A stretch of 64,000 bases of DNA from contig JBFLYM010000002.1 of the NCBI GenBank assembly GCA_040757035.1, forward strand, positions 4,300 through 68,299, in the 5' to 3' direction. Below are positions 21,649-64,000 of the stretch, piece by piece. Source of the DNA: Candidatus Micrarchaeota archaeon (lineage in GTDB: Archaea; Micrarchaeota; Micrarchaeia; Anstonellales; Bilamarchaeaceae). Below the pieces are notes generated by a model. It ran no database searches. It was not told where the DNA came from and saw only the letters and a list, made by a program, of their open reading frames with translations. Position numbers and translations under genes: made by a program. Position 1 is the stretch's first letter. Each line of letters starts with the position of its first letter.

Positions 21649-22899
21649 TTATCTCGACATCCACTTCCAAGCTGGTTCAATTACTATTCTTTTCTTATCT
21701 ATTTCTAATTTATCTTCTTGATCGAGCGTTATTATTATTCCTTCTTTCAAATTGTATCTATCTAATGCTTCCAAAAGCCCGCCCAGCTCCCGATCTTTAT
21801 TCTCATCTCCAACCTTAAAACAAACCTGCACTGCGAAAATTATCTTGTTGGCATCTTTGACCAGGAAATCGCATTCGCGCTTGCCTTTAAAATAATAAAT
21901 ATTTCTATATTTTTTTCTGAGATGCACATAAACAAGGTTTTCCAATAGTCTTCCCTTATCTTCAGATAGCGAAGTTGAGTTTATTCTTGATAATCCGTTG
22001 TCTATGGAGTATAATTTTTTTGGATTTACTAATTGTTTTCTCATTGAATAATCAAATCGAGGAACCGTAAACGCAAGATAACTATCTTCAAAAAACGAAA
22101 TGAAAGAAATAACACTATTGACCGAACCCAGTTCGAATATTTTCTTAAGAGAATTGTAGCTAAATTCCTTTCCAAAATTTGATAGAATGTACAGTGCCAT
22201 TTCATTTAAGGTTTTCAAATTCCTTATTTTGTGCCTTATAGATATATCTCTTGCGACAATATCGCCCAGCAAATGCCTGAGAACCTCGGGGTTTCGTTCT
22301 TTTAGATATTCCGGAAAGCCGCCGTTCCTTAGGTATTCCTCAAACGAATCCACGTCCGGATTCTGTTTCGTAAATTCTAAAAATTCAATATAAGAGAAGG
22401 GGTATAATTCATAAGTTAAGTGTCTGCCTGTCAAACGCGTTCCCAATTCTTTGCTTAGTAATGAAGCGTTGGAACCAGTTATAACAACATATTTTTTCTT
22501 TTCCAGGAGAGATCTTATATAGAGTTCCCATTTGTCCACGCTCTGTATCTCATCAAAAAAATAACAATTCTGTTCCCCTAATTCTTCTTTAAAAGCCTCA
22601 TCCAATCGCTGGAAGTCATTCAGTCCGAAACCAAATGCACGTGGGTCGTCGAAGTCGAAATAATAAAACGACTGATATTTCTTCATTAATTGGCGCATTA
22701 GTGTACTCTTGCCGCATCGTCTTATCCCAGAGATAATTATCGCAAAATTGGTAATTACTGGCATCTCTTTTAATTTTTCCCGTTCTACTCCATAATCCCG
22801 TTGTTTGAACTCTTTATTTTGGGATCGTACAATTTCCTTTAGAACATCCTTTAATATCATGGATGTAGTTTCTACATCTCTCTTTATAAATGTTTTCAT
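21649..22899 (-). CDS. AAA+ ATPase, COG1373 type (AAA_14 + DUF4143), paralog 3
   Basis: GIRRCGKST and FFDEIQ motifs. C-terminal RECDFLVKD. Ends PAWKWMSR. Confidence 0.75.
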   Translation of the reverse strand: MKTFIKRDVETTSMILKDVLKEIVRSQNKEFKQRDYGVEREKLKEMPVITNFAIIISGIRRCGKSTLMRQLMKKYQSFYYFDFDDPRAFGFGLNDFQRLDEAFKEELGEQNCYFFDEIQSVDKWELYIRSLLEKKKYVVITGSNASLLSKELGTRLTGRHLTYELYPFSYIEFLEFTKQNPDVDSFEEYLRNGGFPEYLKERNPEVLRHLLGDIVARDISIRHKIRNLKTLNEMALYILSNFGKEFSYNSLKKIFELGSVNSVISFISFFEDSYLAFTVPRFDYSMRKQLVNPKKLYSIDNGLSRINSTSLSEDKGRLLENLVYVHLRKKYRNIYYFKGKRECDFLVKDANKIIFAVQVCFKVGDENKDRELGGLLEALDRYNLKEGIIITLDQEDKLEIDKKRIVIEPAWKWMSR

Positions 22900-22953
22900 T
22901 GATAGTGCACACTATTGCTCATTGGCAATGAAATGGTGCTTACTTAATAATAT

Positions 22954-22995
22954 TCTTTTCCGATGCGATTAACCGCGCATGCAAATATTCCATTT
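22954..22995. repeat. 42-bp intergenic copy of an internal segment of the CN-hydrolase gene
   Basis: Exact 42/42 identity with 24514-24555 (minus strand encodes NGIFACAVNRIGKE). Together the two copies flank the ATPase gene 23020-24102 in direct orientation. Confidence 0.9.
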
Positions 22996-23019
22996 CATTG
23001 ATTATATTTATCTCTAGCG

Positions 23020-24102
23020 CTACAAACCCTGATCGCGTCTCACAGCCGAAAACTTCAAGGCTTCTTTTATAATTGGGTCTCCGAGATTGTATTTTCCCCC
23101 TTTTTCTTCTATGAACCCATATTCCTGCAGCTGATCAAGAAGATTGGAAAGCCTGCTATCTGGAATTGGTTGACCTGATTTCGCTATGATAAAATTTTTT
23201 ATTTCGTTCCATGAAAGCGGCTCTTGGCTGAGAGACGCCAATATAAACAGATAGCGCTCCTTTGCCGCGATTCTCATGTTTAGGAACTCCTTAAGTTCAG
23301 CCGCTATAATCTTTGAGCTGTCTTTTAGTGTTTTTGAAAGAGCAACTTCATGGAACAATTCCTGCCTATAAAAACCATAATAAGTAAGCCAGCCAATCAC
23401 ACCGTCAAGCTTATCAACCGCTGTTTCAATTTCATTTTCTCGAATATTTATTTTCAACTGAGCAAAACCGGTCCTTAAAAACGTGATAGAATCCTTGCGT
23501 TCCAGCCTCCTTAAATTTATCACTTTTTTTGGCCGCCCATACAGTAGGCTCCCGATCTCGGAGCCTATAAACTTGTCCAATATGCCTATTTCGGAACCGG
23601 CAAGTATGATTTTTATTCTTTTTAGTCTATCGTAGATGAAAGCCAAGAAACGGTCAAATCCTGAGGGTTTTAGAAGCTGAACTTCGTCAATAAAAAGGCA
23701 GAAAAAATCATTTCTATCCTCCATCATCTTATCAATTCTTTTTGCCAACTCGCTCAGGCCCTTTTCTTCCCTAAAGCTTAATTTTACATAAATATCCAGG
23801 CCTTCAAGATAGGATTTCGCTTTCTCGTACATGCTTATACTTCTTAGAAAATCGTAAAATGTCCTTCCAATATGTTCATAAACTGCTTTCCTCCCCTTCG
23901 CAATTTCCCTAGAATCGATAAAAAGCTTTGGATGTTTGATTTCGCTGTAAACTACATTCATTAAACTAGTCTTGCCTGTTCTTCGCAATCCGCGCAACAC
24001 TATGAGCCGCTGCTGTTCGAGTACCCTTTCTATTTCCGCACATTCCTTATCGAAACCGAACAAATCTTTTCTGCTCGTCTTTGGTGTGATGTCAAAGTAC
24101 AT
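23020..24102 (-). CDS. archaeal ATPase (Arch_ATPase/COG1672-like, with C-terminal wHTH)
   Basis: LRGLRRTGKTSL Walker A and LFIDEVQ Walker B. Architecture differs from the COG1373 paralogs. Confidence 0.65.
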   Translation of the reverse strand: MYFDITPKTSRKDLFGFDKECAEIERVLEQQRLIVLRGLRRTGKTSLMNVVYSEIKHPKLFIDSREIAKGRKAVYEHIGRTFYDFLRSISMYEKAKSYLEGLDIYVKLSFREEKGLSELAKRIDKMMEDRNDFFCLFIDEVQLLKPSGFDRFLAFIYDRLKRIKIILAGSEIGILDKFIGSEIGSLLYGRPKKVINLRRLERKDSITFLRTGFAQLKINIRENEIETAVDKLDGVIGWLTYYGFYRQELFHEVALSKTLKDSSKIIAAELKEFLNMRIAAKERYLFILASLSQEPLSWNEIKNFIIAKSGQPIPDSRLSNLLDQLQEYGFIEEKGGKYNLGDPIIKEALKFSAVRRDQGL

Positions 24103-26746: not shown

Positions 26747-28555
26747 ATGATAGAAGGAGAAATATCAGAATTACGAAAAAAAATTGCCACCATCGCAACA
26801 CTAGCTATAACTGATATAGCTAAAATCCAAGGAGAAATAAAAAGTGATATAGAAAAGTTGCCAGAGACAGATTCACAAAGAAACACATTATCTAATGCAC
26901 TTGATGAGGCAGTACGCAATCGAATTAAAACTGAACTAAATTTTGAAAAATCATTAGCATCTAATATTCTACAAAAGGTGGTAACAGAGATACGCAAGAA
27001 TTTTGAATTGAACGCTGAGCTACTTTTTATCCTTGATATCGAATTAGACGAAGGAATTAAATCTGAAATAGAAAAAATTATCCGGAGTACAGATCCACCT
27101 TTTAAAAAAGGCCTTAAACTATATACTCGGTGGAGTATATTAACAAAACTTGGAATACCTGGCGACACAACTGGATCAATTAACGAGCGTATTACCCCCG
27201 AAGCAAGCAAATTACTCACACAATTAATTGCAGAAGCAGAACCAAAAGTGACCAACGCAATAAATGAAAACTCGGTATCGAAAAATGAAGAAGTGCTTAG
27301 ATATTTTCCTCTTATTATAAAACTCAATGGAATAGTTAAAGGAGATAAAGAAAAAGAAATAAATAAAACAATATCAGAACAAATAACAAAGTTATTTGAA
27401 ATTGTACAAAAAGAAGACAATATCAATAAAACAGAAATAATTTCTCAGTTTGTTGGTTTGATTCCATCATTACATGGAAAAAAAGAACTTATGGGTATAT
27501 TTCTACATCTATATGAAAAAAAGATAGATATTACTCCGATTCCAGAAGATAGAAAAAAGTTCATTGAGACTTTTAAGACTTGGAATGTTGAAATTAAAGA
27601 TTTAGCAATATCAGGAGAAGAAAAAAACAAATTGATTATATATCTCTGTGAAAAAATAATAAAAGAGTGTGATATACAATCTAATTCAGACTTATCTTCA
27701 TATGCTAATAAAATACCAGCGATTTATAAGGTCTTGGAAGTATTGAAATCTATTACCGGAGAGGCAAGAAGTTTAACCACACAATTAATTGCAGAAGCAG
27801 AAACAAAAATAGATGAAATTGCTGCAAAAGTGTTTGATTTAATACAAAAAGATGTTGATAAAAACTCCAATATAGAAGTACAGAAAAAAATTAGACTGCT
27901 GTTTGATGTAATAGAAAATGCACAAGAATTTGTTGAAAAATACGAATCAAAAATACAAGGCCAATTAATAGATGTATATATAAATGCTATTTGTTCTCGT
28001 GTTCTGCAACAAGGATCAGTTAGCGGAAGGCTTAACGATCCGGATGCATTCCTTTTTGTAGCTATTAGAGATGTTATAGACCAATTATTACCAAATCTTT
28101 ATAAATTCTATAAATGCCACCCTGAGATAGCTTCTCCTGCAGTGTATGCAGTTGAAGAAGACATTGAAACATTATATAAATTATATGTACAATCTAAATG
28201 GGCAGAAAAAAGAGATGAGTTAAAAAATGGACAACAAGCAAGTTGTTGGGTATCAACTGAAGGATTAGAAAAGATAATTAGGGAAGAAATTGACCCTAAG
28301 ATTGCTAAACAGGATATGCAAGAGATTAAAGAATTGCTTGCCAGATGTAAATATGCAATAACGAGATATTGTTTGGATTTTGATAAACGAATGACGACAG
28401 TTGAAGCGATACAAAACGATATAATGACTAAAACTGATGCACAACCGCTTGAGCCAACAAAAGTTCGTGAATTGATTTTGAGGATTATTAATGGCCAAAA
28501 AACTTTGCAACTTAGTGTTGTAAGTCAACTAATTACGCAAAAGTTAGTAAGATAA
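26747..28555 (+). CDS. hypothetical protein, predicted helical with an internal repeat
   Basis: 602 aa rich in charged, helical residues. Repeated segment LT(Q/T)QLIAEAE(P/T)K at two positions. No catalytic motif. Confidence 0.4.
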   Translation: MIEGEISELRKKIATIATLAITDIAKIQGEIKSDIEKLPETDSQRNTLSNALDEAVRNRIKTELNFEKSLASNILQKVVTEIRKNFELNAELLFILDIELDEGIKSEIEKIIRSTDPPFKKGLKLYTRWSILTKLGIPGDTTGSINERITPEASKLLTQLIAEAEPKVTNAINENSVSKNEEVLRYFPLIIKLNGIVKGDKEKEINKTISEQITKLFEIVQKEDNINKTEIISQFVGLIPSLHGKKELMGIFLHLYEKKIDITPIPEDRKKFIETFKTWNVEIKDLAISGEEKNKLIIYLCEKIIKECDIQSNSDLSSYANKIPAIYKVLEVLKSITGEARSLTTQLIAEAETKIDEIAAKVFDLIQKDVDKNSNIEVQKKIRLLFDVIENAQEFVEKYESKIQGQLIDVYINAICSRVLQQGSVSGRLNDPDAFLFVAIRDVIDQLLPNLYKFYKCHPEIASPAVYAVEEDIETLYKLYVQSKWAEKRDELKNGQQASCWVSTEGLEKIIREEIDPKIAKQDMQEIKELLARCKYAITRYCLDFDKRMTTVEAIQNDIMTKTDAQPLEPTKVRELILRIINGQKTLQLSVVSQLITQKLVR

Positions 28556-28580: not shown

Positions 28581-30335
28581 CTATATATTAAACGACGAAA
28601 CAAGCCTTTCAATTTGAAGCAATATCTCTTTTTCTTCTTGGCTCAACAGTTCAATTTTCTTTTTCCATTTTTCCAATTCGTTCTTTGTCATATATGTAAT
28701 AAGTATATCCTCCTGAAATACATCATTATTTAATGTTACTTCATCTATTGAGATAGCTGTTTGGAGACCTTTTTCAGCGATATTTAGTGCTTCTTTTTCC
28801 CTTTGTATTGTCTTTATTTCTCCTAAAACAACCCCGTTTTTATTCATGATTTTGAAGTGTGGTTTAAGTCTTCCGGCTAAAACTTCTATCCCAAAGATAG
28901 CAGGTTTGCTCATGCGAAAGAAACAATTTGGCAGTACTTTTATCGCGCATGGCCACGGCATCTTTTCAAAAACTTCTTTTTTCTCTTTTTCTTTTTCTTC
29001 TGACTTCCATTCATTGTAATTATCAACAAGTTTGTAAATTATATTGCTGTATATTATCGGAATATTTGTTTCTCTGCACGCAGTTCTCGCATCTGGCAAA
29101 ATCTGTACATTAAATGCAAATACTATACCGGTATATTTATCCTGCGCACCGACATTCGCGGCTATGAAAACATCGTTTTTTGTTACCGCACCCACATTCG
29201 CTGTTTTTATTGGAATTTTTTCATCTGTAAGTATTTTGAGTATCGCTTCTATGCTTCCCAAACTATCCGCTTTTATTATTGCGCCTAATCCAGAATTTTC
29301 AAAAATAAGTTTGCTTACCTGTGCTTCTATTTCTTTTTTGTTTTTTTCATAATCCTTATGGTCTTTGATTGCGACAAATGGGGAACCGCTTAGCGCATCT
29401 TCTAAATTTGGTGCCAAAATTTTAATCCCGGCTGCAGCAGCGATTTGTTTCACGCGCATAAACTTTTCTTTCGCACCATCTAAACTAGGTTCAAGCAACG
29501 CACGGATTTTTGTTTTTTTCACACCATGCTTGCCGAGAAAAAGAATTTCTTCGCCTTCGCTTAGTATTCCATCATAAATAATTATGTTTATTGTTGGTCC
29601 AAGCCCGCGTTCATCCTTTACTTCTATTATACTACCCTTTGCGCCTTTATCTGAATGAAAATGAAGCTCATTTTCTAAAAATTTTTGACTTAGTCCTGCG
29701 ATCAAAAGAAGAATTTCCGCGATGCCTTCATGCGTTTTAGCGCTTAGAGGTACTATTCCAAGCTGCTTGGTAAAGTCCGCTACCCTGTCAAAACGCTCTG
29801 AATCAAAATTATATTCAGAAAGCGCGCCAATCAATTCATATATTTTGTTATTTAAGTTGCTCTTCACATGTTCGGATTGTTTCGCAAATGATTCTAAAAA
29901 AGAATTTGTATTTTGCGTTTTCCATCCGGTGATCAAATCAATTTTATTCGCTGCGATTAAAAAAGGGGTTTTCGCATTCTTTAATATTTTCAGGCTTTCT
30001 ATTGTTTGCGGTTGAAACCCCTGCGCAATATCTACAACCAGCACCGCCATGTCGGCAATGCTTCCTCCGCGTTCCCGCAAATTAACGAATGCCGCATGGC
30101 CAGGAGTATCTATAAAAAGAATTCCTGGTATATGCAAATGCATCGTCATTTTTTTTGCAATTGATTTTGAAATTTCATCTATATTCTCTTTTCGGATGTA
30201 ACTTGCGCCGATCATTTGCGTAATGCCACCGGCTTCTTTCTTGGCAATACACGTGCCTCGCACAGCGTCAAGTAGCGAGGTTTTTCCATGATCAACATGA
30301 CCTAATACAGCGATTATTGGAGAACGAATACGCAT
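28581..30335 (-). CDS. infB: translation initiation factor IF-2 (aIF5B)
   Basis: GHVDHGKTSLLD (G1), DTPGH (G3) and NKID (G4) with aIF5B domain order. Probable start MRIRSP at 30335 (ORF opens at 30347). Confidence 0.9.
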   Translation of the reverse strand: MRIRSPIIAVLGHVDHGKTSLLDAVRGTCIAKKEAGGITQMIGASYIRKENIDEISKSIAKKMTMHLHIPGILFIDTPGHAAFVNLRERGGSIADMAVLVVDIAQGFQPQTIESLKILKNAKTPFLIAANKIDLITGWKTQNTNSFLESFAKQSEHVKSNLNNKIYELIGALSEYNFDSERFDRVADFTKQLGIVPLSAKTHEGIAEILLLIAGLSQKFLENELHFHSDKGAKGSIIEVKDERGLGPTINIIIYDGILSEGEEILFLGKHGVKKTKIRALLEPSLDGAKEKFMRVKQIAAAAGIKILAPNLEDALSGSPFVAIKDHKDYEKNKKEIEAQVSKLIFENSGLGAIIKADSLGSIEAILKILTDEKIPIKTANVGAVTKNDVFIAANVGAQDKYTGIVFAFNVQILPDARTACRETNIPIIYSNIIYKLVDNYNEWKSEEKEKEKKEVFEKMPWPCAIKVLPNCFFRMSKPAIFGIEVLAGRLKPHFKIMNKNGVVLGEIKTIQREKEALNIAEKGLQTAISIDEVTLNNDVFQEDILITYMTKNELEKWKKKIELLSQEEKEILLQIERLVSSFNI

Positions 30336-30452
30336 AAGGAACACCATGTTTATTATTTATATACAATCCATACAATTCGCGTTTTTTAGCGGATCGGTGT
30401 ATATAAAGGATCGGTATATATAAATAAAGAAAGATATTATAAAAGGAAATCT

Positions 30453-31460
30453 ATGAAAATTATGAGAACCACAAAAATTACCATTTCAAAGGACGCGCGT
30501 ACTCGTTGGGAAGCGAGTTACAGCATAATTGGAAATCATTCGGGAATCCAGATTTGTACATGGACAAAAAAAGCGTTGCGTGGAAAAGGAGTGTGCTACA
30601 AACAAAAATTTTATGGAATTGATACGCACAGATGCGCGCAAATTTCTCCAGCACTCGCATGGTGCAACGAAAATTGTATTTTTTGCTGGCGTCCGAACGA
30701 GTGGATGGAAAATATTAAAATGAAGCGCAATGAAGTGGACGAGCCTGCTGAAATAATCTCTGGCGTTTTGGAAAAAAGAAAAATCCTGATTTCCGGCCTA
30801 AAAGGCGCGCACGATGCGCAGAAAGAAAAATGGGAGGAAAGTTTCAAGTTTTTTCCATCGCATTGGGCAATATCTCTTTCCGGTGAACCAACTCTTTATC
30901 CAAAATTGGCAGAGCTAATAAAAGAACTAAGAAATCATAAAGAAGTGAAGAGTATTTTTTTGGTTTCGAATGGTCAGCTTCCGAGCGCAATTTTGAGATT
31001 GGTCAAAAAAGATGCACTTCCAACCCAGCTTTATATAAGTGTGAATGCCTGCAACAAAAAGATGTTTGAAAAAATAAATAGACCAAAATATTGCGATGGT
31101 TGGAAACGATTGAATAGAACAATTTCTCTGCTTCCTAAATTAAATTGCAACACTGTAATCAGGTTCACTATTATAAAAGGACAGAACGATTCTGAAAAAC
31201 ATTTAAAAAAATTTGCCAGAATATTTGAAAAATCCAGGGCAGATTTCATAGAAATAAAAGGATATATGTTTTTGGGTGATTCGCGCAAACGCTTGGTTTT
31301 TGAAAACATGCCAACGCATGAACATGTAAAAGAATATTCTCAGCGCATTATAAAAATGCTTCCGAACTATTTCATCAAAGATGAGGATTTTTCTTCTCGC
31401 ATAGTTCTGCTGAAAAGAAATAAGATAAATAAGATGATGTCTTTAGGCTGCGTTTCATAA
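30453..31460 (+). CDS. taw1: tRNA 4-demethylwyosine synthase (radical SAM TYW1/Taw1)
   Basis: CNENCIFCW radical-SAM cluster motif and the conserved N-terminal Cys region (ICTWTKKALRGKGVCYK). Confidence 0.7.
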   Translation: MKIMRTTKITISKDARTRWEASYSIIGNHSGIQICTWTKKALRGKGVCYKQKFYGIDTHRCAQISPALAWCNENCIFCWRPNEWMENIKMKRNEVDEPAEIISGVLEKRKILISGLKGAHDAQKEKWEESFKFFPSHWAISLSGEPTLYPKLAELIKELRNHKEVKSIFLVSNGQLPSAILRLVKKDALPTQLYISVNACNKKMFEKINRPKYCDGWKRLNRTISLLPKLNCNTVIRFTIIKGQNDSEKHLKKFARIFEKSRADFIEIKGYMFLGDSRKRLVFENMPTHEHVKEYSQRIIKMLPNYFIKDEDFSSRIVLLKRNKINKMMSLGCVS

Positions 31461-31488: not shown

Positions 31489-32196
31489 ATGGTAGATATA
31501 TTTAGCATGAAAAAACAAATAATTTGCGATTCAAGTGCGTTAATTTCGCTTACAGGTTCCTGCCTTGTTGAATCGCTTTCTTTTCTTGCAAAAAAATTCG
31601 ACCTCTCTTTCATAATTACGGATACAATAGAATATGAATCAATAATTCATCCGCTTAATCTTGCGACAAAAGAATATGCGTTCTCAGCACTGAAAATAAA
31701 AAATGCAATTCAAAACGGCGCGCTCATAAAAATGACATCTGATGCGTACGTAATGCAAAAAAGAGACGAAATTCTTTCTCTTTCAAATAATATTTTTTTC
31801 GCGCGTGGGCGTCCGATAAATCTTGTACATGCAGGCGAAGCCGAAATGCTCGCGCTCGCGGATAAACTAAAAACAAACTATCTATTTATGGACGAGCGCA
31901 CTCTCAGAGTGCTTATAGAGGCTCCGTTCAAAATAAAGGAGCATTTTGAAGAAGAATTTAATACCAGCGTTATGATAAACAAAGATAATCTGGAAAAATT
32001 AGGCGTAATAGCAAAAGGACTAAATATTTTTAGAAGCGCAGAACTGATTTCGTTTGCTTATCTTAACGGCTTTTTTGACCAGTATAATGAGCTTAAGAAA
32101 GATATATATTCCGCTGCGCTTTACCATCTCAAATATTCTGGCTGCGGTATTCGCTACGACGAAATCGCAGAATTAACTACGGCTTTGATTTCATGA
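31489..32196 (+). CDS. PIN-domain-like protein (hypothetical nuclease)
   Basis: QIICDSSALISL (N-terminal Asp), ITDTIEYE, HAGEAEMLALA and LFMDERTL fit the PIN-fold acidic residue pattern. Extra ~85-aa C-terminal region. Confidence 0.35.
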   Translation: MVDIFSMKKQIICDSSALISLTGSCLVESLSFLAKKFDLSFIITDTIEYESIIHPLNLATKEYAFSALKIKNAIQNGALIKMTSDAYVMQKRDEILSLSNNIFFARGRPINLVHAGEAEMLALADKLKTNYLFMDERTLRVLIEAPFKIKEHFEEEFNTSVMINKDNLEKLGVIAKGLNIFRSAELISFAYLNGFFDQYNELKKDIYSAALYHLKYSGCGIRYDEIAELTTALIS

Positions 32197-33782
32197 AACA
32201 AGCATACGATACACTGAATAATGCGTGGAAATCCACTTGCAAAGTTCTGTTTGGAGAAGAGATTGGTGAATTAAAGGAATACGAAGAATGGTTAAAGGAA
32301 TATATGCCGATAATCGGTAGAAGAAAATCATGTATTTCTGGAAAAGAGGTTATTTTTGCTGTTGATAAGTATCATGGAACCAAAAATTTTGTTTCGTTAG
32401 ATGAAATTAATGAAAATAAGGAAAAGTCAATTGATCCGTTGACAATCAATGAAATAAAGGATATTGATTCAATCATTACTGCACTTTCTGAGAAATGGGA
32501 ATATTGCGGAAATAAAATTCTTGGAAATTCAATAGCTGTTGAACAATCGGATACCGTTAAGGATTCGCAATATATACTTGAATCCGCAGCCATTGAAAAA
32601 TCAGTCTATATTTATTCTTCTTTTCAGTGTACAAACTGCAAATATGTTTTCGGAGGAATAAGAGTAGCTGATGGCGAATTTATAATAGGAGGATTAAGGG
32701 GATTTGGAAAACGCTCTTTTAATTACTATTGGTCGCAAGATAATAGTGATCAATATGTTTGTTCCAATTGCCAAAATTGTAACAATATTATTTTTTGCTT
32801 TAACCAAATAAACAAAAATTACCGTATAGGAAATCTACAATTGGATAAAGAAAAATATTTTTCACTCAAAAGCAAATTAGTGAGTGAAATCAGAGATGAG
32901 TTGAAAAAGAACAAGAGGTTTCCTTCAATTTTCGAACTTGTTCCTGATGAAAAACCTAATGAAAATGCTATTAAAATAATAGAAAGTGTACCTACAAAGA
33001 AAGAAGGCGATATGAAATTGATAGAAGATGCTTTTAAGTCCACATTTAAAGTAATTTTCAGAAAGGATATAGAAGGAATAACTCCATATGAGGAATGGTT
33101 TTATCAAACCATACCAAAACAAAAAGAAATTGTTACAATTATAGGGTCTAAGGTATATAGTTTAGATCCTAAATTTTACAAAATTTATTCAAAAGTACCG
33201 AAAAAAAGAATGTTAAAGTTTGAAGAGACTATGATGTTAGATAATTTACATCTAAATGAAACTGAGATTACTTCTATCAAAAACATAATAACAAGATTGT
33301 CAGAAATAGCCTATATTACTGATGAGTTTTTTGGCGGAAAAATTCATAATCTTATTCAATGTAGATGTGGGTTAAACCTTTTTCATGCGTACAAAAGCAA
33401 TGGACAACGTGCAGAATACTTAGGATTAAACGATTTTCCTTTTGATTCCAAATACATCTTTGGTTCTGAAAGGGTGAGTAATTCGCAGTTTTGTATAAAA
33501 TGTTATTATATCCTTGATTGCGTGCGATGCTTTGAACTGGATTCGTGCGAGAAATGTTCGGACTCGTATTTTTGTCACAATTGTGAGGGTTTATCCAGCG
33601 CAATGTTCTGCTTTAATGTGAAAGCAAAAAGGTCAGCAATTGGCAATCTGGAAATGCAATTGGATCAATATAAAAAAATAAGAGATTCTTTAGTTGAACA
33701 AATGGCAAATGATATTCTAGGAAAAAAGGAATTGAAATATAATATTTTCAATATCATAAGCAGAATTAACAATTCGACTTGA
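32193..33782 (+). CDS. hypothetical Cys-rich protein made of two homologous ~260-aa halves
   Basis: Residues ~1-265 and ~275-529 are parallel: NAWKSTCKVLFGEEIGELKEYEEWL vs DAFKSTFKVIFRKDIEGITPYEEWF, plus CxxC-rich blocks (FCIKCYYILDCVRCFELDSCEKCSDSYFCHNCEG...FCFN). Start overlaps the stop of 31489 (ATGA). Confidence 0.5.
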   Translation: MKQAYDTLNNAWKSTCKVLFGEEIGELKEYEEWLKEYMPIIGRRKSCISGKEVIFAVDKYHGTKNFVSLDEINENKEKSIDPLTINEIKDIDSIITALSEKWEYCGNKILGNSIAVEQSDTVKDSQYILESAAIEKSVYIYSSFQCTNCKYVFGGIRVADGEFIIGGLRGFGKRSFNYYWSQDNSDQYVCSNCQNCNNIIFCFNQINKNYRIGNLQLDKEKYFSLKSKLVSEIRDELKKNKRFPSIFELVPDEKPNENAIKIIESVPTKKEGDMKLIEDAFKSTFKVIFRKDIEGITPYEEWFYQTIPKQKEIVTIIGSKVYSLDPKFYKIYSKVPKKRMLKFEETMMLDNLHLNETEITSIKNIITRLSEIAYITDEFFGGKIHNLIQCRCGLNLFHAYKSNGQRAEYLGLNDFPFDSKYIFGSERVSNSQFCIKCYYILDCVRCFELDSCEKCSDSYFCHNCEGLSSAMFCFNVKAKRSAIGNLEMQLDQYKKIRDSLVEQMANDILGKKELKYNIFNIISRINNST

Positions 33783-33788
33783 TCTAAT

Positions 33789-35213
33789 TTGCAAACGATC
33801 GGAAAAATTTGGTTGGTTGAGTATATGCCTGGAAAAATATTTGCAGTTGTTGGCAATCCAATACTCCATAGTAAAAGTCCAGAGATGTTCAATGCAGCAT
33901 TTAAGAAATTAAAGATAAACGCTATCTATATAAGAATTGCCGCATTTGATGCAGAAGAAGTGATGCGCACCGCAGATGATATTGGGCTATGTGGTTTAAA
34001 CATTACTTCGCCATTTAAGGAAGAATTAAAGAAAAAAATGCGCGTTTCGAATTCGTTAAACACACTCATAAATACAATCATTATAGATAAAAACGCAAGA
34101 GAAATCGATGCAATAAACTGTATAATTTGCAAAAATGATCCAAAATCAAAGTGTCCGAAGAAACAATTACTGGTTGGTTATAATACCGATGTTGCTGGCG
34201 TTATTGGTGCGCTCAAACATAATTCTTGCGATTTTGTTGGTAAAAAAATCATAGTGCTCGGTGCTGGAGGTGCGGCAAAGGCAGCGATATACGCACTTGT
34301 TTCTAAAAAAGCGGATGTAGTGGTGGTAAACCGCACATTCAAAAAGGCAAAAAAACTTGCGCAGCGATTTGGTTGCAGAGTCTCAAAATTTGATGAAATT
34401 GCGCAAGAACTCGAACATGCGAACATTCTAATCTCATGCGTTCCTACTGGCGAACGAATAATTCCAAAATCAGCGCTACGCAAAACGCTTAGTGTATTAG
34501 ATGCAAATTACTCAATAGATACAGCACTCAAAAAAGATGCAAAGAGCAATAATTGTAAAATAATTGATGGAAGAGAATGGTTACTTTTTCAGGCAATTCC
34601 GTGTTTTAAATATTTTATTGGTAAAAAAGCACCAGTCGCAGCGATGCGCAAAGTGCTTTACTCAAAAAAGAAAAGAAAAAAAAATATCGCTCTTATTGGT
34701 TTTATGGGTAGCGGAAAAACAGCGGTTGCTAAAGAACTCGCAACACTTAACGGAATGAAATCCGTAGATATAGACGCTAACATAGAAAAAAACATGAATA
34801 TGAAAATAGCGCAAATTTTTGAAGATATGGGAGAACGCGAATTTAGAAAAATAGAAAACGCGGAATTAAAAAAGGCGCTTGAATCCGAAAACGCAATAAT
34901 TTCCTGCGGAGGCGGGTTAGTGTTAGATCCGCGCAATGTAGACATGCTAAAAAGAGATTGCACTGTTTTTTGGTTATGGGCAGATATAACAACCATAATG
35001 GAAAGAATAAGTAAAGATGATTCAAGACCATTGATCAGAACTAAAAACAAAGGCGATCTCAAAACCAAAATCGAAATCGCCAAAAAAATATTAGAGCAGC
35101 GGTTATTTGTTTACGCAAACGCTTGCGATGCTCTAATAAATACAGTTGGAAAAAAACCAAAAGAAATTGCCGCAAGGATAGATTATGAAATTAACGAAAT
35201 TAATAAAGCCTAG
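33789..35213 (+). CDS. aroE: bifunctional shikimate dehydrogenase / P-loop shikimate kinase (AroE-AroK fusion)
   Basis: N-terminal AVVGNPILHSKSP with a Rossmann GAGGAAKA (AroE). C-terminal IALIGFMGSGKTAVAKELA...ISCGGG (bacterial-type shikimate kinase I). Probable start MPGKIF at 33825. Confidence 0.8.
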   Translation: MQTIGKIWLVEYMPGKIFAVVGNPILHSKSPEMFNAAFKKLKINAIYIRIAAFDAEEVMRTADDIGLCGLNITSPFKEELKKKMRVSNSLNTLINTIIIDKNAREIDAINCIICKNDPKSKCPKKQLLVGYNTDVAGVIGALKHNSCDFVGKKIIVLGAGGAAKAAIYALVSKKADVVVVNRTFKKAKKLAQRFGCRVSKFDEIAQELEHANILISCVPTGERIIPKSALRKTLSVLDANYSIDTALKKDAKSNNCKIIDGREWLLFQAIPCFKYFIGKKAPVAAMRKVLYSKKKRKKNIALIGFMGSGKTAVAKELATLNGMKSVDIDANIEKNMNMKIAQIFEDMGEREFRKIENAELKKALESENAIISCGGGLVLDPRNVDMLKRDCTVFWLWADITTIMERISKDDSRPLIRTKNKGDLKTKIEIAKKILEQRLFVYANACDALINTVGKKPKEIAARIDYEINEINKA

Positions 35214-62087: not shown

Positions 62088-62777
62088 TTAAGAAGTATAT
62101 AATGGGTCTTCTTCTTTGGTATAGGTCTCGTGAATTGTTTTCCATACTGCTCTTGCTTTCTTTTCACCAAGACCTTCAATTTTTAAAAAATCTTCCTCGC
62201 TCGCGCAAAAGAGCGCTTCCAAACTCCCAAAATGAATAAGCAGTTTTTTCGCCATACACGGACCTATCATCGGAAGCATCTCAACAACAGAGCGCTGGGT
62301 TTGCGCAAGGGTAAGCGATTTTCTTTTTGCGAATATTCTCATTTTTATTTTCTTCGCAAGTTGTTCGTGTTTCGCAATCGAATAAACAAGTTCGGCAGTG
62401 GATTTTTCATTTTTTGTGAAAAAAAGCGACGCGCCAAAATCTGTTATCACAGAAACATAAGCGCCCATAAGTGCTGCGCGACTAAGCGAATGTCCACTTG
62501 TTTTTTCGTTTCCCATTCCCTCTATTACAACTATTACATTTTCAAAATTTGCACGCAAATTCCGGAGTTGGGAAAAAAACCTGCCGTCCAATATAGATGC
62601 TTCAAAATCGCTGCGCGTTTTTCTTTCTACAATTGTTTTTTCAGAACAAACAAAATCTCCAACTTCAAGCATTTTCTCTTCTACTTCTGCACCGAATTCA
62701 GAGAGAAGATTCGCAAATCCGCGCTCGCGTTTATCAACTGCAATTTTTGCTTTTTGCTCTTGCATATACTCAGCCAA
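62088..62777 (-). CDS. short XPF/ERCC4-type structure-specific endonuclease with (HhH)2 domain
   Basis: GDFVCSEKTIVERKTRSDFEASILDGR contains the ERK/GDxn motif of the ERCC4 nuclease. C-terminal LEALFCASEEDFLKIEGLGEKKARAV is an HhH2. Confidence 0.55.
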   Translation of the reverse strand: MAEYMQEQKAKIAVDKRERGFANLLSEFGAEVEEKMLEVGDFVCSEKTIVERKTRSDFEASILDGRFFSQLRNLRANFENVIVVIEGMGNEKTSGHSLSRAALMGAYVSVITDFGASLFFTKNEKSTAELVYSIAKHEQLAKKIKMRIFAKRKSLTLAQTQRSVVEMLPMIGPCMAKKLLIHFGSLEALFCASEEDFLKIEGLGEKKARAVWKTIHETYTKEEDPLYTS

Positions 62778-63126: not shown

Positions 63127-63822
63127 ATGGTCGGTCTTGATAAGGCGATAATCGCCGATATCACTATAAATGGCGATGTATTTGAAATTTATGTAGATCC
63201 AGAAATGGCGAATGCGTATAAGGAGGGTAGAAAACCAGATACAAAAAATATTCTTGTAGTTGAAGAAGTATATTCTGATGCAAAAAAAGCAGAGCGCGCG
63301 AAAAGCAATGCGCTCCAGAAAGCATTTGGTACTACAGACGTGATGAAAATTCTTGAAATAATCTTAAAGAAAGGAAATCTTCAATTAACCACAGAACAAA
63401 AAAGAAAAAAAAGCGAAGAAAAATATAAACAAATTGTAACTATCCTTATGCAAGAAACCATAGATCCAAGAACGAATGCCCCACATACTCAATCTAGAAT
63501 AGAAGAAGCTTTAGAAAAAGCGCAGATTCATATCGATCCGTTTAAAGATGCGAGAGATCAACTTCCAGATATTATTAAAGAGATAAGAGCGATAATTCCA
63601 CTTAAATTTGAAAAGCTCAAAATAGCCGTGAAAATACCTGTTGAATATGCGCGTCGTTCTTACGGTACGCTAAAAAGTTGGGGAATTCTTAAAGAACAAT
63701 GGATGGGCGACGGTTCACTTATTGTAGTTATAGAAATTCCGGCAGGTATACAAGGCGAGTTTTACAGTAAAATAAATAAAATGACTGCAGGAAATAACGA
63801 AACTAAGATTATAGAAAAATAA
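63127..63822 (+). CDS. sdo1: ribosome maturation protein SBDS (Sdo1)
   Basis: FYSH-domain N-terminus (DVFEIYVDPEMANAYKEG) and the three-domain length. Confidence 0.8.
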   Translation: MVGLDKAIIADITINGDVFEIYVDPEMANAYKEGRKPDTKNILVVEEVYSDAKKAERAKSNALQKAFGTTDVMKILEIILKKGNLQLTTEQKRKKSEEKYKQIVTILMQETIDPRTNAPHTQSRIEEALEKAQIHIDPFKDARDQLPDIIKEIRAIIPLKFEKLKIAVKIPVEYARRSYGTLKSWGILKEQWMGDGSLIVVIEIPAGIQGEFYSKINKMTAGNNETKIIEK

Positions 63823-63849: not shown

Positions 63850-64000
63850 ATGCGAAATAATAGGGAAAGTATGGATATAGCTAATGCATTCAAATCCACG
63901 TTTAGAATAATTTTCGGTAGTGAATGCAATGTCCAACTTGAAGAATTGCGAGATTACCTTTGGAAATATCATTATCCTTCTTTCAAAAAAAAATCTTCGC
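63850..64000 (+). CDS. partial CDS, third paralog of the NAxKSTxK(V/I)(I/L)FG module seen twice in 32193-33782
   Basis: M..MDIANAFKSTFRIIFGSECNVQLEELRDYLWKY parallels NAWKSTCKVLFGEEIGELKEYEEW and DAFKSTFKVIFRKDIEGITPYEEW. Truncated by the window end. Confidence 0.45.
   Translation, partial: MRNNRESMDIANAFKSTFRIIFGSECNVQLEELRDYLWKYHYPSFKKKSS

Follow-up and report, generated by a model that had tools for sequence, protein, structure and literature searches.

A stretch of 64,000 nucleotides from the genome of a Candidatus Micrarchaeota archaeon (contig JBFLYM010000002.1, positions 4,300 to 68,299 of the forward strand; hereafter the window) carries a gene for a 529-residue, cysteine-rich protein (32193-33782, plus strand) whose start overlaps the end of a gene for a PIN-domain protein. 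The 529-residue protein is a fused, two-module member of a so far unnamed Micrarchaeota family, which we call A-B after its modules. In the explanation that we favour, and to which we assign a probability of about 0.6, each module of this Micrarchaeota family is built around a beta-solenoid of 12 residues per turn, the A-B unit is a scaffold, and the gene came to lie beside the PIN gene by rearrangement. Micrarchaeota are host-dependent archaea with genomes of about 1 Mb, and some of them give 2-3% of their coding capacity to this unannotated family. Here, we describe a computational analysis of the A-B protein, its relatives and their gene neighbourhoods, and weigh the favoured explanation against its rivals.

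Two related modules in an unnamed family

The A-B protein of the window consists of module A (residues 1-262; 32193-32978, plus strand), with a helical hairpin, a small alpha/beta subdomain, a solenoid and a C-terminal helix, and module B (residues 263-529; 32979-33779, plus strand), which has the same layout and a more variable N-terminal part. An earlier note on this DNA had described the protein as a tandem duplication with a conserved N-terminal helix signature, and both points are borne out: the two halves align over about 250 residues with 27% identity (E 2e-18, single BLASTP comparison), and across 849 family modules the signature has the consensus LNkaWKsTCrvLfGeEiGeL.eYe.WL in module A and IEkAFssT.k.llgKel.gid.Ye.WL in module B. 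The third copy of the signature that the note had placed at 63850 is the 5' end of a second A-B paralog (63850-64000, plus strand), which carries the signature and matches the family profile with an E-value of 5.6e-5. On a Logan contig encoding an identical SBDS protein (L088), the open reading frame (ORF) that begins at 63850 runs through a full A module into B, for 341 residues to the contig end. In all, the window contains a complete two-module paralog and the beginning of another.

The number of homologs of the A-B protein, 676, is a lower bound. A profile search of 1.84 billion cluster representatives returned 1721 proteins at E<=1e-3, 329 of them at E<=1e-30, which puts the family size at no fewer than 1721 clusters, clustered at 50% identity, and a scan of one genome per GTDB species gave 283 confirmed family stretches. 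The named sources are nearly all Micrarchaeota/Micrarchaeia (Anstonellaceae, Bilamarchaeaceae or unclassified); the exceptions in the source names are two metagenome-assembled genome records (L040, L057) with an Iainarchaeum-like name. The A-B family is probably a large one, so far unnamed and restricted to Micrarchaeota.

As the earlier note had stated, no characterised family matches. Pfam searches with the query and with each of 67 members gave no match, the best recurring family appearing in 4 of the 67 and always below the cut-off; NCBIfam gave no match to the A-B protein, nor did the PADLOC models of anti-phage defence systems to the 529-residue protein. PDB sequence profiles, queried with the full-length protein and with a mixed A/B module, returned nothing credible; a phycobilisome-linker match in that search (E 0.008) covers the helical part of module B only and was rejected. 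Foldseek comparison of the A-B model with PDB and BFVD likewise gave no match, and a cluster of uS7 ribosomal proteins at the top of its list (E about 2-9, probability <=0.03, TM-score <0.2) was disregarded. A scan of viral contigs found no A-B relative, and literature searches on Micrarchaeota Cys-rich proteins, HerA, paralogs, archaeal 12-residue solenoids and LFW genomes turned up no description of the family. Database labels on two homologs, 'zinc ribbon domain-containing protein' (NCBI) and 'methanogenesis marker protein 9' (JGI), are corrected by the present result, which also removes the false inference of a nuclease partner.

A predicted solenoid of 12 residues per turn

An AlphaFold2 (AF2) model of the A-B protein, built on 67 sequences (predicted local distance difference test, pLDDT, 85; predicted template modelling score, pTM, 0.87), shows in each module a pair of N-terminal helices and a small alpha/beta part, then a long run of very short strands and, last, a long C-terminal helix. 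The geometry of the solenoid was derived from covariation rather than from the AF2 coordinates, by mean-field direct coupling analysis (DCA) of 849 aligned A and B modules (effective number of sequences, Meff, 761) and by a second DCA of 379 fused proteins in which the A and B columns were kept separate. In the module analysis, the strongest medium-range couplings form a ladder at separation 12 that extends over about 105 columns, and the mean coupling after average product correction is 0.93 at separation 12 and at most 0.23 at every other separation from 4 to 29. Couplings at separations 12 and 3 recur in both modules of the fused proteins, and the predicted 12-residue-per-turn solenoids occupy residues ~102-216 in module A (32496-32840, plus strand) and ~376-487 in module B (33318-33653, plus strand), where AF2 strands begin at residues 379, 392 and 403. 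In a 12-residue register, phases 2, 5, 8 and 11 hold 12-28% Cys together with small or aliphatic residues, and are charged in 1-9% of cases compared with 14-36% at the other phases. Parallel stacking with a period of 12 and four inward positions per turn, the two features of the 12-residue beta-helix of the beetle antifreeze protein TmAFP, are therefore both found; the reference pattern of inward positions is that of PMC8038014. Each module, as predicted from covariation, is likely to form some 9-10 turns of a 12-residue-per-turn beta-solenoid in which every third residue faces inward, with Cys, Ser or Ala of the core lying opposite Leu, Val or Ile.

Some features of the model weigh against this prediction. 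The pLDDT of the later solenoid turns is 64-78, and DSSP assigns three long strands at residues 379-411 that can be read as a meander, the parallel stacking in that part being indicated by covariation alone.

Among the invariant residues are the pair R445-D457 (R174-D186 in module A) and the asparagines N463, N475 and N485. We read R445-D457 as a putative stacked salt bridge because positions 174 and 186 are coupled, and the three asparagines as probable structural ladder positions because other beta-helices have Asn ladders. The module analysis couples the N-terminal helices with the C-terminal helix at 22-238, 29-241 and 36-242 and with the solenoid at 11-153, and the long C-terminal helix would pack back on the N-terminal helices in each module. 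Between modules, the strongest coupling is 61-523, and others are 22-519, 88-520, 104-522, 48-521, 250-375 and 243-362; the tail of B (519-523) is thus coupled to the subdomain of A (48-61, 88-104), and the linker of A (243-253) to its counterpart in B (362-375). This pattern points to a pseudo-symmetric dimer of A and B held by exchanged tails, an arrangement that would fit the strict A-then-B pairing of the genes described below. A SufB/SufD-like beta-helix scaffold, considered because of the A/B pairing, was rejected on the lack of a Pfam SufBD match and a different coil length.

Cysteines in the predicted solenoid core

The earlier note had taken CxxC pairs spaced by about nine residues in the 529-residue protein for stacked zinc knuckles. 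The pairs themselves are there: C434/437, C443/446, C452/455 and C461/464 (33492-33584, plus strand) follow each other with a period of 9, all at inward-facing solenoid positions. Their nine-residue rhythm arises because the cysteines retreat by one inward position per turn (437, 446, 455, 464, 473). The zinc-knuckle reading did not survive comparison with relatives. All four CxxC pairs occur together in 1 of 240 members (0.4%), which is the query itself, and the frequencies of the individual pairs, from the first to the fourth, are 54%, 1.7%, 36% and 28%. Position 443 is Leu in 185 of the 240 members, position 452 is Ser in 127 and Cys in 103, and relatives frequently carry Ser, Ala, Val or Leu at each of the Cys positions. 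CxxC pairs are not kept as ligands across homologs, and no zinc-ribbon family of Pfam is consistently matched across members. The strongest couplings at separation 3 pair a small with a large residue (449-452, 467-470), and Cys or Ser usually stands opposite Leu or Val across the narrow core. Module A of the query lacks most of these cysteines and keeps the fold signature. Since the cysteines are replaced by Ser, Ala, Val or Leu and the set of four CxxC pairs is unique to the query, they are not conserved metal ligands; they are most likely buried packing residues of the solenoid core.

The rival to be weighed here is that the A-B family consists of metal-binding or iron-sulfur proteins that use Zn, Fe or Cu in storage, in redox reactions or as cluster carriers. 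For the query this would mean two Cys4 sites, C434/437/443/446 and C452/455/461/464, and a 12-residue coil could bring four inward positions of neighbouring turns together at its axis. Family members contain three times as much Cys as the genomic background (3.4% versus 1.0%), and 67% of them have the whole of the correlated ladder C437/446/455/473. These observations tell against a purely packing role, and some members of the family might bind metal. Few members, however, have a complete Cys4 set, 0.4% for the first two pairs and 14% for the last two; the frequent replacements and the Cys-poor module A of the query speak in the same direction, and small/large pairs at separation 3 are expected from steric core packing. 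We regard a metal function as rather unlikely.

Positions 61 and 523, at opposite ends of the strongest inter-module coupling, deserve separate mention. They are His and Ser in the query; Cys61 is present in 40% and Cys523 in 44% of members, and the two cysteines co-occur (r 0.8), a covariation that would also suit a metal site. In part of the family, Cys61 and Cys523 could form a disulfide or a shared metal site that clamps the tail of B to module A.

Gene organization of the family

Genes were called on 85 loci and family members marked by profile; all loci come from essentially one phylum, and conserved neighbourhoods may partly reflect shared ancestry. The 85 loci hold 261 family genes, comprising about 170 fused A-B genes (~525 residues) and 84 single modules, of which 42 were assigned to A and 42 to B when scored against separate A and B models. 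Adjacent single modules stand, in transcription order, A-then-B in 28 cases, B-then-A in 8 (between successive pairs), A-then-A in 2 and B-then-B in none. From these counts, the family unit is always A followed by B, whether fused or split. Arrays reach 9-10 genes (L003/L017, L020/L073, L007), adjacent genes within them overlap by about 35 nt, and one genome, JBAZLG, has at least 12 fused and 3 single genes in its sampled loci alone. The closest match of an A-B gene comes from a different genome in 91% of cases, with a median identity of 59% across genomes and 42% for the best match in the same genome, a distribution that marks the paralogs as old.

Several neighbours recur among 80 loci. A HerA/FtsK-like ATPase of about 650 residues (DUF87, TrwB_AAD_bind) is present in 31, usually in convergent orientation at the 3' end of the array; a 240-residue HTH_10 regulator lies directly upstream in 23; a double Lrp/AsnC regulator of 323 residues occurs in 25, usually divergent from a solitary A-B gene; and an enzyme dependent on pyridoxal phosphate (PLP) is a neighbour in 10. 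No HerA-like ATPase, HTH_10 or Lrp/AsnC regulator or PLP enzyme is found in the window. Its own arrangement, aIF5B on the minus strand followed by an A-B gene, recurs in L001, L029, L032, L033 and L038. Sequence subfamilies that would track context (after HTH_10, before the ATPase or after the Lrp-type regulator) were sought and discarded, as all groups share about 37% identity and bear no relation to context.

These neighbourhoods raise the possibility that the family works with the HerA/FtsK-like ATPase, as cargo or adaptor of a translocation machine that would serve host interaction or the transfer of DNA or protein, or as part of a nucleic-acid-processing complex. In 28 of the 80 loci, a DUF87/TrwB_AAD_bind ATPase is no more than two genes away from a family gene and typically closes the array, and in 20 loci the HTH_10 regulator stands at the head of the same arrays. 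The ATPase gene is mostly convergent, though, and so not in the same operon; many family genes, both of those in the window included, have no such neighbour within the window; the synteny may be inherited within a single phylum; and no membrane partner and no relatives in viral contigs were found. A role as partner of the ATPase is, like a metal function, rather improbable.

A few loci show other features of note. An AbiEi/AbiEii toxin-antitoxin pair sits between two co-directional A-B paralogs in L001 (7718-9066; the same as L002 4584-5932), and small mobile modules therefore do land in A-B arrays. In L007 (1-10524), a tandem row of seven or more fused A-B genes, with overlaps of about 35 nt from gene to gene, is followed by an IS605 OrfB/TnpB gene. 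Divergent upstream of some arrays, in L004 (1-6961) and L006 (2-5006), are ORFs of 1283, 899, 764, 682 and 649 residues with no Pfam match; these very large ORFs may encode cell-surface proteins.

The PIN gene and its relatives

The ORF at 31489-32196 (plus strand, 235 residues) encodes a genuine PIN-domain protein, judged by its AF2 model, Foldseek comparison and conserved residues. Its homologs start at Met7 of the query ORF, and pLDDT is below 50 for residues 1-5; given where the homologs begin, the true start is probably the ATG at 31507, for a protein of 229 residues. The PIN core spans residues ~8-150, and about 80 residues of helical C-terminal extension come after it. The AF2 model, built on an alignment of 34 sequences (pLDDT 93.3, pTM 0.87), has the three-layer alpha/beta/alpha fold with central parallel sheet that is expected of PIN domains, and Foldseek ranks 1-14 in the PDB are all VapC/PIN proteins (probability 1.0, target-normalised TM-score 0.57-0.70, best E 1e-3). 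Residues D14, E50, E117, D135, E136 and R137 are invariant across 34 homologs, and D14, E50, E117 and D135 appear to be placed as in PIN domains (after strand 1, in helix 2, and after strands 3 and 4); the PIN-type acidic residues that the earlier note had seen are therefore confirmed. No Pfam match to the PIN clan was found at E<=0.01 among the 34 members, precomputed PF11848 matches to the family are faint only, and PADLOC matches are marginal and cover partial stretches (best E 0.0017).

The TGA stop of the PIN gene overlaps the ATG start of the A-B gene in an ATGA (32193-32196, plus strand), as the note had reported. Co-transcription of the two genes is probable, since nothing that clearly resembles an archaeal TATA element is present in the last 90 nt of the PIN gene. 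The note had gone on to propose a coupled two-gene module, made up of a PIN nuclease and a partner with several zinc ribbons, for RNA processing, toxicity or defence. The overlap, the PIN fold, the four CxxC pairs of the query and the probable co-transcription all suit such a module, yet the distributions of the two families argue against a partnership. The PIN family has 36 members in a collection of 5.8 billion proteins, compared with at least 676 homologs of the A-B protein, and is thus about 20 times smaller. In 5 of 5 other genomes examined, the PIN homolog begins 1-3 nt after a gene for a protein of about 180 residues with a helix-turn-helix (HTH)-like C-terminus, and in 4 of the 5 it is followed by an ERCC4/XPF nuclease gene; the closest non-identical homolog (73% identity) is among the loci with this order of 180-residue, PIN and ERCC4 genes. 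No A-B gene lies near the PIN homolog in the three of these loci that were scanned by profile (+/-5 kb), and the genes called in the other two include no evident one.

Seen from the other side, a PIN gene is not a recurrent neighbour in about 80 A-B family loci. Adjacency of the two genes is limited to the query genome and relatives 98% identical to it (P0003, P0121). The set of four CxxC pairs is, moreover, peculiar to the query and no feature of the family, and PADLOC gives no match for the Cys-rich protein. The nuclease-plus-zinc-ribbon module is accordingly the least likely of the readings, and we consider it very improbable. The ATGA is ordinary gene packing, and the position of the PIN gene before the A-B gene, overlap included, is probably the outcome of rearrangement in a compact genome rather than a functional two-gene module.

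The conserved PIN operon encodes the 180-residue HTH-like protein, the PIN-like protein, ERCC4/XPF and a protein of about 292 residues (L085 4454-6394, L087 4451-6387, L089 5450-7348, L090 899-2798); its composition suggests a role in DNA repair or processing rather than as a toxin. In the window this operon is broken up, with ERCC4 30 kb away and the 180-residue gene absent. A VapBC pair was not found, the gene upstream of the PIN gene being TYW1 in the window and the conserved 180-residue gene in the homologs.

Possible functions of the A-B unit

The A-B unit would be a soluble, non-enzymatic scaffold of the cytoplasm, whose flat solenoid faces may bind partners or self-assemble. The family appears to have diversified into many specialised old paralogs, and many of the arrays would stand under a dedicated HTH_10 or Lrp-type regulator and near a HerA/FtsK-like ATPase. 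No transmembrane or signal-like segment occurs in the family, which excludes a secreted or membrane protein, and members have no extra domains; apparent N-terminal extensions that might have been informative fusions are artefacts of ORF calling. A DNA mimic was rejected on the near-neutral median isoelectric point (pI) of 6.8. None of the libraries searched gave a catalytic or ligand motif, and the conserved residues of the solenoid can be read as structural.

Other considerations count against a scaffold. The role is argued from absence, namely of a catalytic motif, a ligand motif and a fusion partner; the ATPase is usually convergent and not co-transcribed, and its linkage could be inherited synteny in one phylum; and the most conserved patch of module A (S46, K89, D90, Y104 and S125) could be an active or ligand-binding site. 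The last point leads to the rival in which the protein is an enzyme or ligand-binder with its site in the N-terminal subdomain of module A and the solenoid as a rigid body. The strongest conservation in the family is indeed found there, in the stretches PLxINEIKDIDSIxEAISEKWEYxGNxxLGNSxFVESSDxVxDSQYV and RKSxxSGKEV, and the five residues of the patch are invariant in 67 sequences, with variable equivalents in module B. Nevertheless, no enzyme family is matched by sequence or fold, part of the conserved stretch already belongs to the solenoid and covaries as such, and a genome would not usually keep 15 or more paralogs of a single enzyme. We judge an enzymatic or ligand-binding role to be distinctly improbable.

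A bolder version of the scaffold, still fairly unlikely, makes the A-B units the building blocks of a hetero-polymer or lattice of extremely narrow beta-solenoids inside the cell, specific to Micrarchaeota. Such a structure could be cytoskeleton- or organelle-like and composed of many old paralogs; dedicated HTH_10 or Lrp-type regulators would switch it on, and the adjacent HerA/FtsK-like ATPase would remodel or load it. If this were true, it would be a new archaeal cell-structural system and the first non-insect, cytoplasmic 12-residue beta-helix. Being large and conserved, the A-B family is likely to be central to Micrarchaeota cell biology.

Gene setting in the window

The window has a G+C content of 35.6% and is thus AT-rich, and archaeal housekeeping genes surround the PIN/A-B pair. 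Upstream are aIF5B (28581-30347, minus strand; identified by reading the ORF translation) and, directly before the PIN gene, a TYW1-type radical-SAM gene (30453-31460; Pfam). Downstream follows a row of genes for a fused shikimate dehydrogenase/kinase, aroA, aroC, chorismate mutase/prephenate dehydratase and prephenate dehydrogenase. The SBDS gene (63127-63822) ends 27 nt before the second A-B paralog, and the ERCC4 gene (62088-62777, minus strand) lies two genes from that paralog.

In the ORF that heads the aroA, aroC, pheA and tyrA row (33789-35213), the shikimate dehydrogenase is fused to a bacterial-type shikimate kinase (Pfam SKI); its TTG start is doubtful, and the ATG at 33825 is likelier. 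Archaea normally carry a GHMP-type shikimate kinase, and this DPANN archaeon may have gained the row as an operon by horizontal transfer. Further upstream, an ORF at 26747-28555 (plus strand) encodes a Lys/Glu-rich protein of 602 residues that looks helical by sequence and has no Pfam match or transmembrane segment. Archaeal ATPase genes stand side by side at 21649-24102 (minus strand), one of the AAA_14/DUF4143 type and one combining AAA_14/ATPase_2 with an MCM-type winged helix, and between this pair and aIF5B are a nitrilase-family (CN_hydrolase) gene and a gene for a patatin-like phospholipase. ARAGORN found no tRNA genes in the 64-kb window.

Comparison with known systems

The PIN protein shares its fold and acidic residues with VapC-type nucleases. 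It differs from them in the extra helical C-terminal extension of about 80 residues and in the lack of a VapB-like gene in the window; VapC-type nucleases, moreover, belong to mobile toxin-antitoxin pairs, whereas the PIN homologs lie in a conserved operon with the 180-residue HTH-like protein and the ERCC4 nuclease. For the A-B protein, the comparison to zinc-ribbon or knuckle proteins fails: CxxC pairs are present in the query, but they are not conserved.

The closest geometric likeness is to the beetle antifreeze proteins TmAFP (PDB 1EZG), DcAFP and DhbAFP, which likewise have 12 residues per turn and four inward positions, three apart, occupied by Cys, Ser or Ala. No sequence or Foldseek similarity between them and the A-B family is detectable. 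The beetle proteins form a C2-C8 disulfide in every turn, whereas the A-B family has a C2/C8 pair in one turn only, in 43% of members; they are secreted and carry the repeat TCTxSxNCxxAx with a Thr-x-Thr ice-binding face, whereas the A-B family has no TxT and no signal peptide or hydrophobic N-terminus. A-B proteins are, unlike them, cytoplasmic and archaeal, with some 9-10 turns between helical domains and A paired with B. The likeness to TmAFP is one of convergence in geometry, not of membership. If the predicted solenoid is correct, the tightest beta-helix geometry known, so far from the secreted, disulfide-locked beetle antifreeze proteins, would occur in a reducing archaeal cytoplasm with a core of Cys or Ser packed against Leu or Val.

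Pentapeptide-repeat proteins such as MfpA and Qnr form four-sided beta-solenoids in the cytoplasm, with residues that point inward and outward in a regular pattern, and they work by binding or by mimicking a surface and not by catalysis. They have 20 residues per turn with the motif A(D/N)LXX, whereas the A-B family has 12, no match to Pfam Pentapeptide and a pI near neutral. Bactofilins and other polymer-forming beta-helix proteins have, as the A-B family is predicted to have, soluble beta-solenoid cores without catalytic residues, and the multiplicity of A-B paralogs fits a structural role of this kind. They show no sequence match to the A-B family and differ in coil length; the ends of the A-B solenoids are covered by helices. 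In its proposed way of working, the A-B family would be closer to the pentapeptide-repeat and bactofilin scaffolds, from which it differs in coil length, core chemistry and swapped-tail architecture. The family itself is undescribed, and beta-solenoid repeat proteins as a kind are already known.

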